Shown: piece by piece, positions 30,646 through 53,399 of the stretch
How positions within the stretch are numbered: the first letter of the stretch is position 1
Layout: the number at the start of each line of letters is the position of its first letter
IMG/VR virus record: IMGVR_UViG_3300037608_000261
Span: 17,920-81,919 of that record
Source of the DNA: a virus
Taxonomy: Duplodnaviria; Caudoviricetes
Reading direction: 5' to 3' (one strand)
DNA length: 64,000 nucleotides
Program-made: the position numbers and the translations under genes
Notes under the pieces: model-generated
What the model was told of the DNA's origin: nothing
Seen by the model: the letters and a program-made list of their open reading frames with translations, nothing else
The model's database searches: none

Positions 30646-30676
30646 GTTTCACAATCCACGCCCACTCGGGGGTGAC
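30646..30676 (-). repeat. Solitary type I-C CRISPR-repeat-like unit
   Basis: Minus strand GTCACCCCCGAGTGGGCGTGGATTGTGAAAC; intergenic; no second repeat nearby. Confidence 0.6.
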
Positions 30677-48255: not shown

Positions 48256-48340
48256 GTGCATATTATTCACTCGTAAAGTGTGAATGTCAAGAACTTTTAT
48301 GTCATATACAAGCACATTTTCTCATTGTAAAATATTTGAC
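48256..48340. promoter_or_regulatory. PR/PRM divergent promoters with operator
   Basis: Minus strand TTGACA(48290-85)-17-AATAAT; plus strand TATACA(48305)-17-TAAAAT(48328); palindrome ATTCAC-N9-GTGAAT at 48265-48285. Confidence 0.7.
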
Positions 48341-48967
48341 ATGTTTGTCCCTGACACATTACGTCGTACTCTAAGGTCATTACGAAAAGATAGGGGGATC
48401 AAGCAAGAGACGGTGGCTATTGTGTTGGGCATGACCAGAAGCAATTACACAAAAATAGAATCAGGTTTAGTTAAGGTAATTAATCCACAACATCTGGCAA
48501 AACTGAGTGAATATTATCAGTTAAGCCTTGAAAATTTAATTACTGGGCCTTCTGCAGAGCCTGCTATCCTTCCCTCACGCCTCGTCCCACTCATCTCCTG
48601 GATAAAGGCTGGGGACTTCCATGAACCATCCGACATTTACCAACCAGGCATTGCTGACGAGTGGATTTCCTCTAACACGAAAGGGGAAAATACCTTTGCC
48701 CTCCGTGTGGTAGGAGACAGTATGACTCCTGAGTTTAGGACTGGTGACATTATCGTCGTCGATCCCTCTCGTGAACCTCAATCAGGTGAATTTGCCGTGG
48801 TCAAAATTGATGATGAGGTTACATTCAAACAAGTCTATTTTACCATGAACAAAATTATCCTCAAACCGATTAACGAACAGGGGCATAAAACCATTGAAAT
48901 AGACCGCAACGATGGAGTGACAGTGCGTATTATAGGAAAAGTCATAGAACAGATCAGAAAGAGATGA
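48341..48967 (+). CDS. cI: CI-like repressor (XRE HTH + S24 peptidase)
   Basis: LRKDRGIKQETVA...NYTKIESG; VPLISWIKAG; FALRVVGDSM; VTFKQ. Confidence 0.92.
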   Translation: MFVPDTLRRTLRSLRKDRGIKQETVAIVLGMTRSNYTKIESGLVKVINPQHLAKLSEYYQLSLENLITGPSAEPAILPSRLVPLISWIKAGDFHEPSDIYQPGIADEWISSNTKGENTFALRVVGDSMTPEFRTGDIIVVDPSREPQSGEFAVVKIDDEVTFKQVYFTMNKIILKPINEQGHKTIEIDRNDGVTVRIIGKVIEQIRKR

Positions 48968-50387: not shown

Positions 50388-50669
50388 TCACGCATGAGTA
50401 TCCTTCCTTTGCCCTGATATACTCTCCACAAGAAGCATCTTAATAAGAGACTGATATGGAACATCCCTTTGATTTGCCATAGCCTTAAGCCTGTTTAGAA
50501 GCATGGCCGGGAGCCTTATTGATATGGTGGTTGTGGACGGTTTTAAATTAGGAAATGTTGCCCTCACCGCTTTAGAATAATCAAAATATTCAGTAGAATC
50601 GTGAGTTGCCCAGAATTCCCGTTCCTCATCTTCATCCTTGAATTCAGGTATTTCTTTTAATGCTTTCAT
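50388..50669 (-). CDS. brnA: BrnA-type antitoxin
   Basis: IPEFKDEDEEREFWATHDST...ISIRLP...DVPYQSLIK. Confidence 0.9.
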   Translation of the reverse strand: MKALKEIPEFKDEDEEREFWATHDSTEYFDYSKAVRATFPNLKPSTTTISIRLPAMLLNRLKAMANQRDVPYQSLIKMLLVESISGQRKDTHA

Positions 50670-50949
50670 TATAATCTTTCCTCTCTTTTTTATTCATATC
50701 TCTTGCCGAAACAATCCTGATCCTGTTGTTCCTAACGGTAAATATTATAAACAGCGGCCTGCCTGAAAAGGTGGCTGATAGAGCTGAATATCTTTGTTCT
50801 CTGCCTGAATGCTTAATATCCTCTCCGACAATAATCGGCATATTTACCATAGCCTCTTCGCATTCCGTGTAATGAACACCGTGCTTCTCATTTTTACTTC
50901 TGTTCCCTGCATCCCATTCAAAGCCTGTTATGATGGAAAAATCAATCAT
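50644..50949 (-). CDS. brnT: BrnT toxin
   Basis: FEWDAGNRSKNEKHGV...HSGREQRY...IRIVSARDMNKKER. Confidence 0.92.
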   Translation of the reverse strand: MIDFSIITGFEWDAGNRSKNEKHGVHYTECEEAMVNMPIIVGEDIKHSGREQRYSALSATFSGRPLFIIFTVRNNRIRIVSARDMNKKERKDYNESIKRNT

Positions 50950-51121
50950 ATTTGTATATAGATATAATATACATTATTGTTTTTGTCAACCCATTGCTCT
51001 CCACTACCCGCAGCAAGTCCTAAAATCCTCCAGATAATTCGTCTTTGAAATTACCTCCCCTAAAAAATAATTTCATGGAAACCATAAATTTGCAAAATAT
51101 TCATAACCTCACATAAAGTTC

Positions 51122-51150
51122 TTGACATTCACATTTATAAGGTGAATACT
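51122..51150 (+). promoter_or_regulatory. PL-like early promoter with operator
   Basis: TTGACA(51122)-17-AATACT; ATTCAC-N9-GTGAAT at 51127-51147, the same palindrome as at PR. Confidence 0.75.
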
Positions 51151-51249
51151 ATGAACATGAAAATCATCCACCCAAAGGAGGAGCCCATGACAGAAATCAT
51201 TCTTGTTTGTTTCAATCCACGCCCTAACCGAAGGGGGCGACTAATATGA
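51151..51249 (+). CDS. Short leader ORF containing the CRISPR-repeat-like unit
   Basis: MNMKIIHPKEEPMTEIILVCFNPRPNRRGRLI; internal RBS AAGGAGGAG before ATG 51187; stop overlaps the next ATG. Confidence 0.45.
   Translation: MNMKIIHPKEEPMTEIILVCFNPRPNRRGRLI
51209..51241 (-). repeat. Solitary type I-C CRISPR-repeat-like unit
   Basis: Minus strand GTCGCCCCCTTCGGTTAGGGCGTGGATTGAAAC; GTCGC 5' end, CGCCC/GGGCG stem, GTGGATTGAAAC 3' end. Confidence 0.75.
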
Positions 51250-51461
51250 ACAATATATCACACCCTGGATCTGAGGAGTTAAAAAAAGAAATCATTCTTG
51301 AAGATCATAAAACCTTTCAGAAGAAGTGCCGCATCCGTAAAAACGGCGTTATTGAGATCTATTATGACTTCGGCGAGGATCGGTGTGTGAGACCCCGGAG
51401 CGTGTTGCTCAGGTCTGAGAGCATCAAGATTTTATCGACCGCTCTCGCGAGGCAATCATGA
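51246..51461 (+). CDS. Early small hypothetical protein
   Basis: 71 aa; coupled at both ends. Confidence 0.65.
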   Translation: MNNISHPGSEELKKEIILEDHKTFQKKCRIRKNGVIEIYYDFGEDRCVRPRSVLLRSESIKILSTALARQS

Positions 51462-51622
51462 ATGATAGAGATGATTTCTGGCCAATGATGGGTATGCTAT
51501 TCTGCGTCTTTGTTTTATTGATGCTCTTTGTTTTCAACAGAAGCCCTCAGCGGCACCACCAGGAAAAGCCGATAACCACACCCCTCGAAAAGGTACAGGA
51601 ATTGGTTATAAAGAACCGTTGA
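51458..51622 (+). CDS. Early small membrane protein (54 aa, not in ORF track)
   Basis: MNDRDDFWPMMGMLFCVFVLLMLFVF...KNR; ATGA overlap. Confidence 0.55.
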   Translation: MNDRDDFWPMMGMLFCVFVLLMLFVFNRSPQRHHQEKPITTPLEKVQELVIKNR

Positions 51623-51731
51623 AACCCCCAAAGGACATTTCGTCCACATCCCGAGGATACGCGACGGCGGAAAAGGGTCACCTCCCCCTTCCTTGGGATT
51701 CCAAAGAGGTAATCAAAAAGGAGGTGAGGAC

Positions 51732-51914
51732 GTGATTTACAACGGCAGGGAAGTGGTCATCGTGAAGAATTACGGTCCGAATTTCTTGGGCGATCCTCTG
51801 GTAAAGGTGGCGGCGAAAGCTGACCCGACGTGGGTAAGAGAAGCGTGGAAGTCGGAGTTAAAACCGGGGAAAACAGCGCAAACCACAGGGGGTGACACAT
51901 GCTCGAAAATATAA
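51732..51914 (+). CDS. Early small hypothetical protein (GTG start)
   Basis: RBS GGAGGTGAGG before GTG. Confidence 0.6.
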   Translation: MIYNGREVVIVKNYGPNFLGDPLVKVAAKADPTWVREAWKSELKPGKTAQTTGGDTCSKI

Positions 51915-52123
51915 ATGAACAGTCAACCAGTCATGCAGAGGATGTAGTCCCTCAAGCATCGGTCAAATTACCAAGGCCTTTTTCCATAGATGAGGCAAAA
52001 TCCTTGTTTGAATTCAGAGAGAATTTATTTAATGACGTCAAGGATGAAGCAACCAGACGAATAGTAAGTAATTGTTACATCGAATACCTTAGAAACAGAG
52101 TGGAACAATCAAGGGAGAGGTAA
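51899..52123 (+). CDS. Early small hypothetical protein
   Basis: 74 aa; in operon. Confidence 0.6.
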   Translation: MLENINEQSTSHAEDVVPQASVKLPRPFSIDEAKSLFEFRENLFNDVKDEATRRIVSNCYIEYLRNRVEQSRER

Positions 52124-52124
52124 G

Positions 52125-53399
52125 ATGATGAAGATAGCCCATATAGCAGATTTGCACTTTCAAAATAGGCAGCCGGTGCTTGCAGACATCATTAAATGCG
52201 CGGCCTTCGCCCTCGAAGAAATCAGAAAAGAAGCCCCGGATCTGATTTTGATTGCTGGGGATACGGTTGATTTTCTGGCATCACCTGAAGGGATCATGAT
52301 CGGGAGTCCGGCGCACATGGCAGCGGTAGAGTTCGTCTATGGATGTGGCATGATGGCGCCTACGGTGATCGTAAGGGGAACCCCAACACATGACGGGCCT
52401 GGAGCTTTGGATGCAATGGCGAGGTTGAAAACAGTGTACCCCGTCTATGTGACGGAGAGGCCGGAACAGATATGCCTTACCCTTGATAATGTATTCCAGC
52501 CTTGGAACGATGTAGTTGCCACAATATCTTTTGCGGAAGGTATGTTTAAAACTCTTATTTCTTGCCTTCCCACCATCACCAAGGGCAACGTCCTTGCCTA
52601 CACATCCGGCTCAGTTGAAGATACCACACGGGAAACACAGGATCTTATTCGGGATATGTTTCATGCCTGGGGCGTGGTTAACGAACAGGTCCGAGCGGAG
52701 GGAATTCCCACGGTAATGGTGGGCCACGGAACATTGACAGGCTCAAGGTTATCTACTGGACAGGTTATGACGGGAAAGGATTTGGAATTTAGCTTAAGCG
52801 ATTTGGCGTTGGCAAAATGCGACATTTACTGTTTTGGACATATCCACTTGAGACAGGAATTTTCCCTGCCCAATTCTACAGCACGTTTCTTCTTTTCCGG
52901 ATCCATTACCCGTCTTAACCATGGTGAAACAGAAAGCAAAGGCTTTTACATCCATCAGATCGAGGACGGCGAGATCGATAGTAGGTTCATTGAAACTCCG
53001 GCGCGGGTGATGCGGACACTGAAACAGGAAGGATTGCCGGACGTAAATTGCGTTCAGGATGTACATGAAGGAGAAAACGTAAGAATCGTTTATCAGGTAG
53101 CTGAGGCGGACGTGGGTAAGGTGGATGAGGAAGCCATTAGACAGGAGGCTCTTGCGAGGGGTGCGGCAGATGTGAAGATTGAGAAATTGATTATTCCAAC
53201 GGTGCGAGTCCGGGCGGAAGGAATAAGCAAGGAACATACCCTGACAGCAAAGCTGGATAAATGGGCAGAGACTACCGGTCAAACGGACCCAGAGGACCTC
53301 TACGACAAGCTGGCAAACCTTGAGGTAAGGGAAGTGGAAGACATCATTGCTGATTATGACTCAGTAAAAGAGGACGCAATAACGGAGGTAGCGGCTTAA
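52125..53399 (+). CDS. sbcD: SbcD/Mre11-like metallophosphoesterase nuclease
   Basis: IAHIADLH, LIAGD, GTPTHD, MVGHG, FGHIH, SGS. Confidence 0.92.
   Translation: MMKIAHIADLHFQNRQPVLADIIKCAAFALEEIRKEAPDLILIAGDTVDFLASPEGIMIGSPAHMAAVEFVYGCGMMAPTVIVRGTPTHDGPGALDAMARLKTVYPVYVTERPEQICLTLDNVFQPWNDVVATISFAEGMFKTLISCLPTITKGNVLAYTSGSVEDTTRETQDLIRDMFHAWGVVNEQVRAEGIPTVMVGHGTLTGSRLSTGQVMTGKDLEFSLSDLALAKCDIYCFGHIHLRQEFSLPNSTARFFFSGSITRLNHGETESKGFYIHQIEDGEIDSRFIETPARVMRTLKQEGLPDVNCVQDVHEGENVRIVYQVAEADVGKVDEEAIRQEALARGAADVKIEKLIIPTVRVRAEGISKEHTLTAKLDKWAETTGQTDPEDLYDKLANLEVREVEDIIADYDSVKEDAITEVAA

Follow-up and report, generated by a model that had tools for sequence, protein, structure and literature searches.

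Our sequence analysis revealed, at the head of the early operon of a provirus, a solitary 33-nt repeat (unit 1, minus strand, 51241..51209) which derives from the type I-C CRISPR repeats of the host lineage, Syntrophorhabdaceae, and which keeps the determinants of Cas5c while standing alone. We tentatively interpret unit 1 as a putative Racr-type RNA anti-CRISPR, that is, a decoy against CRISPR immunity, and give this interpretation slightly less than an even chance. The system that would be deceived is present in the host lineage, and the same lineage holds evidence that I-C immunity targets this phage family.

The window, meaning the whole stretch of 64,000 nt that was analysed, comprises bases 17920-81919 of an 81.9-kb IMG/VR provirus record. 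The capsid protein is 30% identical to gp23 of P1, which identifies this temperate phage as a distant P1 relative. Around unit 1 the gene order is a CI/LexA-type repressor, an LprI-domain gene, BrnT/BrnA, a promoter-like site, four small ORFs and homologues of SbcD and SbcC, with the following features:

51209..51241, minus strand: unit 1, solitary type I-C CRISPR-repeat-like sequence, 33 nt
51122..51150, plus strand: promoter-like site of the rightward early operon, TTGACA-17-AATACT, from a consensus scan
51187..51249, plus strand: leader ORF of 20 codons with ribosome-binding site AAGGAGGAG, reading across the complement of unit 1
51246..52123, plus strand: four small early ORFs (51246-51461, 51458-51622, 51732-51914 and 51899-52123), family-less in searches
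48284-48967, plus strand: CI/LexA-type repressor
50388..50949, minus strand: BrnT/BrnA toxin-antitoxin pair, served by a TTGACA promoter of its own and lying on the strand of unit 1, downstream of it

Unit 1 lies about 60 nt downstream of the plus-strand early promoter-like site. It is placed between real genes, yet within a leader ORF of the opposite strand (20-35 codons), the stop of which (51249) overlaps the start of the 71-aa ORF in an ATGA. The first-pass annotation had described just this setting, with the repeat some 60 bp after PL (the promoter-like site at 51122-51150), inside a leader ORF (the one ending at 51249) and ahead of four tiny ORFs. Its proposal that the small ORFs are Acr candidates found no such backing: none of the four showed likeness to any anti-CRISPR in searches of Pfam, PHROGs, PDB sequences and the ESM Atlas, and the homologue search for the 71-aa ORF returned nothing, leaving it an orphan. 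No known acr or aca genes, which are frequent though not obligatory neighbours of Racrs, were found near unit 1, and the four small ORFs match no Acr/Aca family or structure. Two further elements of this region were recorded. The BrnT/BrnA pair, consisting of a ribonuclease toxin and a CopG-type antitoxin, is situated between the immunity region and the early operon. The int-alpA RNA motif (Rfam RF02996) was detected within the same early operon (window:51650-51709, plus strand) at 38.1 bits against a gathering score of 35.8, immediately upstream of the third small ORF with its ribosome-binding site and its GTG start (51732).

Unit 1 occurs once in the window, and 0 of 100 shuffles yielded a match to it within 3 mismatches. 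It opens with a 5' overhang of 2 nt, continues with a lower stem of 5 bp and an irregular top of 10 nt that contains UUCG, and closes with a canonical 11-nt 3' tail. A covariance model (R2) trained on five array repeats of the host class Syntrophorhabdia, with the phage units left out, gave unit 1 a score of 33.3 bits (E 1.4e-7 in a search of 166 kb); the Rfam family CRISPR-DR9 gave 21.3 bits, below its gathering score of 45. The solitary I-C repeat reported in the first-pass annotation at 51209-51241 of the minus strand was recovered exactly and as a unique sequence of the window. The annotation had further equated 9 nt at the 5' end and 16 nt at the 3' end with an I-C repeat, which holds true against the Syntrophorhabdia arrays, the repeats of which start with GTCGCCCCC and finish with GGGCGTGGATTGAAAC.

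Unit 1 and the Syntrophorhabdia arrays agree in the 5' overhang, the lower stem, the UGG cleavage context and the whole 11-nt 3' tail, and the differences are confined to the upper stem and the loop. The UGG directly after the stem base and the 11-nt 3' overhang, which constitute the recognition and cleavage context of Cas5c, are both present, and in Syntrophorhabdia arrays adjoining an I-C cas operon the tail has exactly the same sequence. Cas5c enzymes have been reported to rely on the base of the stem together with the 3' overhang and to accept variation in the loop and in the 5' overhang (PMC8524198). The parts of unit 1 that equal the host arrays are thus the parts that these enzymes need, which was counted in favour of the Racr interpretation. 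The stem has 5 regular pairs, its upper part being replaced by the irregular 10-nt top, compared with 7 bp and a pentaloop in the class, and the fold was computed at -9.4 kcal/mol, compared with -13 to -15 kcal/mol for host repeats.

The identity of unit 1 to the closest repeats found among 96 host-class genomes is approximately 25/33 (about 76%), which, judged against these repeats, falls below the cut-off of SRUFinder, which is 90% in both identity and coverage. No further full or partial repeat is located within 100 bp of unit 1, the distance over which SRUs are judged solitary. The exact repeat had no second copy in IMG/VR, the 20-mer of the hairpin retrieved a single unrelated high-GC chance match from JGI metagenome contigs, and no array carrying the exact hairpin was found in the viral or metagenome collections. 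Accordingly, unit 1 is a diverged mimic rather than a fresh copy of a known array. The same features, namely an identity of about 25/33, the lack of an array with the exact hairpin and a weaker stem, were counted against the Racr interpretation. As a separate observation, the stretch 51198-51224 of the window agrees in 26 of 27 positions with a repeat-spacer junction of a Syntrophorhabdaceae genome (G001:C1:1166221-1166247); the match covers the terminal 16 bases of unit 1 and the next 11, and its A-rich spacer part (10/11) may be a trace of array origin or chance.

The assignment of the phage to a host lineage is based on its relatives. Homologues of SbcD with a source name belong mostly to Syntrophorhabdus and other Syntrophorhabdales. 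A sister prophage resides in a complete Syntrophorhabdaceae genome (OY762209.1, hereafter G001) and shares 67% identity in SbcD and 92% in the capsid protein, and a third member of the family, the viral contig G011 of 82 kb, has a capsid protein 90% identical. A capsid search through 96 genomes of the class found a member of the family in G001 only. With three members at hand, the phage family is too small for covariation statistics. Other phages with a related SbcD (G006-G009) are not P1-like and are without I-C units. Separately, a distant SbcD-carrying viral contig (IMGVR_UViG_3300038805_000346) contains a two-repeat I-C mini-array (L059:1756-1854, plus strand; 44 and 22.8 bits) and, as a weak third match, a repeat-like sequence (L059:3102-3133, plus strand), these being situated 2-3 kb upstream of SbcD in the same orientation.

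Type I-C CRISPR-Cas, the subtype of unit 1, is present in the host lineage, at the level of Syntrophorhabdia. Arrays of repeats starting with GTCGCCCC and finishing with GGGCGTGGATTGAAAC were detected in 15 of 96 Syntrophorhabdia genomes, a count obtained with a restricted pattern. In G001 an array of 94 repeats stands directly behind cas3, cas5c, cas8c, cas7, cas4 and cas1c, and the degenerate last repeat fixes its orientation; cas5c of this operon is at L117:6826-7476. Matching the repeat to those of hosts had been suggested in the first-pass annotation as a check, and the absence of an I-C system from the host lineage as one of the grounds for dismissal; the Syntrophorhabdia I-C repeats turned out to be near-identical at the two ends and the system to be there. 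Inserted between cas7 and cas4 of the G001 operon is a gene for a four-helix-bundle protein with a 'suffix domain' (L117:2997-3575, minus strand).

The G001 array also contains a record of contact with the phage family. A trailer-proximal spacer of this array (~L018:1837-1870, minus strand) matches the genome's own prophage in 33 of 34 positions (G001:C1:3737606-3737639, inside L122), the mismatch being at spacer position 2. The three bases 5' of the target are TGC in G001 and TTC at the homologous sites of the phage described here and of G011, TTC being the I-C flanking motif, as is also reported in PMC8406640. The spacer looks like the outcome of a past acquisition from the phage family, after which the resident prophage escaped by mutation, leaving a self-match that is now tolerated. 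I-C immunity targets this phage family, and a live I-C conflict is documented by the self-matching spacer and by the altered motif that flanks its target in the sister lysogen. A comparison of the 144 spacers of six Syntrophorhabdia arrays with the whole 81.9-kb record gave chance-level matches only.

The immediate surroundings of unit 1 proved to be rearranged. The 5' end of the first early gene is present twice, on either side of the repeat, and one of the two copies contains a promoter-like motif:

51151..51205, plus strand: copy A, one of two diverged 55-bp versions of the first early gene's 5' end, just past the 3' side of unit 1 when read in the repeat sense
51246..51300, plus strand: copy B, the other version, with which the 71-aa ORF now begins and which contains the -10-like motif
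51252..51260, minus strand: extended -10-like motif TG-n-TATATT, recognized by eye, ending 10 nt upstream of unit 1 in the repeat sense

The two copies are identical in 42 of 73 aligned columns and share an identical 14-mer and the start ATGAAC. Read in the repeat sense, the order is reverse copy B, four bases, unit 1, three bases and reverse copy A. Unit 1 has no counterpart in the G001 prophage or in G011, and a comparison of the DNA of 50950-52130 with both G001 and G011 gave no homologue of the unit 1 locus. This, and the lack of a known acr or aca gene nearby, was counted against the Racr interpretation.

The same observations bear on an unlikely, though by no means negligible, alternative, according to which unit 1 is an inert scar: a piece of a host array, or of the older second unit of this phage (unit 2, described below), caught by illegitimate recombination while the gene start was duplicated. 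Such an origin would agree with the absence of unit 1 from both relatives in an early region that is itself unique, with its location inside the local duplication of 55 bp, which indicates that rearrangement was recent, and with the weakened stem and the lack of a promoter by consensus scan. The 11 bases past the repeat point the same way if their agreement, in 10 positions, with the beginning of a G001 spacer is an array remnant and not chance. What speaks against a scar is that all positions read by Cas5c are intact while the loop has drifted, which is the pattern expected under selection.

Under the Racr interpretation, unit 1 would be transcribed from the minus strand, bind Cas proteins and inhibit interference. 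The only candidate promoter for an RNA in the sense of unit 1 is the TG-n-TATATT motif (51260-51252), which is without a -35 element and which, going by its sequence, may act as the sense promoter. The consensus scan of the minus strand at unit 1 predicted no promoter and no terminator, and the promoter signal is accordingly graded as weak; this, as well as the -10 lacking a -35, was counted against the interpretation. A start from the motif would place unit 1 4-6 nt from the 5' end of the RNA, which fits the published remark that phage SRUs are often located directly downstream of a predicted promoter (PMC10651486). A further point held against the interpretation is the well-signalled 20-codon ORF that runs through unit 1 on the opposite strand, so that the unit is not strictly intergenic.

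The proposed course of events is as follows. A short minus-strand transcript would begin a few nucleotides upstream of unit 1, at the weak extended -10 site within the duplicated start of the first early gene. Its 11-nt tail and the phage RNA behind it would then lead to unproductive assemblies of Cas5c and Cas7, diverting the Cas proteins from real crRNAs. This RNA could possibly be made in the lysogen, because unit 1 points away from the CI-controlled early operon and adjoins the immunity region.

The duplication also invites a reading in which the sequence behind the repeat serves as a guide. Here, unit 1 would be a one-repeat guide cassette, with the 11-nt tail and copy A as the guide, directed either against siblings without the insert, in the manner of a mini-array or of homing, or, as a Cracr/crlRNA, against a promoter of host cas or defence genes. 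The repeat is indeed flanked by a diverged duplication of a gene's 5' end, and the would-be guide would therefore be an older allele of the gene start; TTC adjoins the junction with copy B, and viral I-C Cracr arrays have been described (10.1101/2024.10.29.618823). However, the register with this TTC fails by four bases, as the shared 14-mer starts from guide position 4, and the insert-free allele would present three mismatches beside the flanking motif and GAT instead of TTC as the motif itself. Cracrs are identified by at least 9 base pairs beside the flanking motif, matching the spacer part of host CreA/CreR RNAs, which regulate cas or toxin genes (10.1101/2024.10.29.618823); in the one host compared, the cas-array locus of G001 has no TTC-flanked site at 2 or fewer mismatches in the first 12 bases. 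Neither a second nor a degenerate repeat follows unit 1, and the sibling allele was absent from all collections searched. On this balance a guide cassette appears improbable. Its most specific form is a 95-bp module, composed of copy B with the new -10, four bases, the repeat, three bases and copy A, which as a self-contained one-repeat cassette would provide host Cascade with a guide derived from the phage's early gene start, acting on cassette-less siblings or coupling control of the early operon to host Cas; we assign this form a small probability. If it were true, the phage family, considering unit 2 as well, would employ host Cas5c and Cascade in its own gene control.

The first-pass annotation had noted that neither an array nor cas genes accompany the repeat. 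No array and no cas gene was found in the whole 81.9-kb record, and to that extent the statement stands; what it left out is a second solitary I-C-like unit in the late operon:

30646..30676, minus strand: unit 2, a lone I-C-like unit of 31 nt, its stem containing an A.C mismatch and its tail being longer by 2 nt

Unit 2 scored 16.4 bits (E 0.03) with the host-only covariance model. It is oriented in the sense of late transcription, with the terminator-like hairpin of the capsid gene on one side and the following gene's ribosome-binding site on the other. The sister prophage of G001 holds a unit at the same junction (L017:11776-11804), scored at 27.3 bits by the same model. When unit 2 is aligned with its G001 counterpart, one stem pair has changed in a compensatory manner (C-G to U-A) and a G-C pair takes the place of the A.C mismatch; apart from a 2-nt indel and the replacement of U by C at the first base, the tails agree. 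At that late junction of G011, the terminator hairpin is followed directly by the ribosome-binding site, without a unit. The presence of two SRUs in one phage, one of them kept in position in the sister prophage with a compensatory stem change, was counted for the Racr interpretation; it also argues against an inert scar, as it suggests that such units are kept.

Two candidate features were examined alongside the units and set aside. The sequence ATTAG precedes all three phage units (unit 1, unit 2 and the G001 unit); it was compared with the array leader ends of three host genomes, and the likeness was unconvincing. A repeat-like string with an I-C-like start and a GGATTG..AAAC tail occurs at window:28853-28888 (minus strand) inside a 622-aa late gene; being located in a coding gene, having no stem and going unreported by both covariance-model searches, it is probably due to chance.

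The location of unit 2 raises the question of a role in the processing of phage transcripts. In this reading, the units would be Cas5c-dependent RNA processing or docking sites, mainly in the form of unit 2, and unit 1 would be a copy on an antisense RNA. Unit 2 and its G001 counterpart lie in sense at the same spot, flanked by the capsid terminator hairpin and the ribosome-binding site that follows, and late expression would come too late for classic anti-CRISPR action. However, the third relative, G011, manages without a unit at the junction, and the G001 unit has CGG, as opposed to the UGG needed by characterised Cas5c (PMC8524198). The likelihood of a processing site is therefore judged to be slim.

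The orientation of the late units is likewise relevant to a reading in which the plus strand of unit 1 is the active one. The early mRNA would then carry the complement of the repeat, pair with the repeats of host pre-crRNA (25/33) and block or misdirect crRNA maturation. The only clear promoter nearby is indeed the plus-strand early promoter, about 60 nt upstream; the complement is certainly transcribed if the early operon is, and its own predicted fold is likewise a hairpin (-10.7 kcal/mol, z -1.9). Opposed to this are the position of the complement within a translated leader ORF, the in-sense orientation of unit 2 and the G001 unit, and the lack of a precedent in PMC10651486 or 10.1101/2024.10.29.618823, which together make action through the plus strand very improbable.

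SRUs and Racrs are already known, including one validated I-C Racr, RacrIC1 (PMC10651486). Of interest in the present case are the group of hosts, how far the repeat has diverged, the occurrence of two units in one genome, the location of unit 1 antisense within a duplicated gene start, and the position-conserved late unit. The case would extend SRUs and Racrs to P1-like phages of syntrophic Desulfobacterota in anaerobic habitats, a group without genetics. Furthermore, repeat mimics at about 76% identity would escape the published identity-based search, which suggests undercounting. The pair of units, one antisense at the head of the early operon and one in sense in late mRNA, also represents a compact test set for the tolerance of Cas5c and for the purpose of such units.

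Compared with the canonical I-C repeat, the substrate of Cas5c (PMC8524198), unit 1 has the same 5' overhang of 2 nt, the same UGG following the cleavage site and an identical 11-nt 3' overhang; the canonical repeat has 7 pairs and a pentaloop and is arrayed, whereas unit 1 has 5 pairs and an irregular 10-nt top and belongs to no array. Virus-borne mini-CRISPR arrays resemble unit 1 in that repeats are carried by a virus without cas genes, but their spacer is bounded by two repeats, in contrast to the single repeat per site seen here. In the viral crlRNAs and Cracr arrays of Liu et al. (10.1101/2024.10.29.618823), for which I-C examples exist, a phage repeat is likewise followed by non-array sequence that possibly acts as a guide. 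Cracrs have a promoter-type match in the host, whereas the sequence downstream of unit 1 is without a TTC-flanked site in one cas locus (G001) and without a degenerate second repeat.

The Racrs and viral SRUs of Camara-Wilpert et al. 2023 (PMC10651486) are likewise single mimics of a repeat on a prophage, without cas genes or an array. Unit 1 shares with them the match to a subtype of the host lineage, a promoter-like element directly upstream and the retained recognition elements of Cas5c; 83% of prophage SRUs whose host has a cas operon match the subtype of that operon (PMC10651486). It departs from them in several respects. SRU calls use 90% or more identity, compared with about 76% between unit 1 and the closest repeats found among hosts; RacrIC1 shares a transcript with acrIC5, which it follows at 11 nt, whereas unit 1 runs antisense to the adjacent operon, overlaps a small ORF and is accompanied by no recognisable acr; and, unlike the published cases, there are two units in one genome here. 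By analogy, unit 1 is probably best filed beside the viral SRUs and Racrs.
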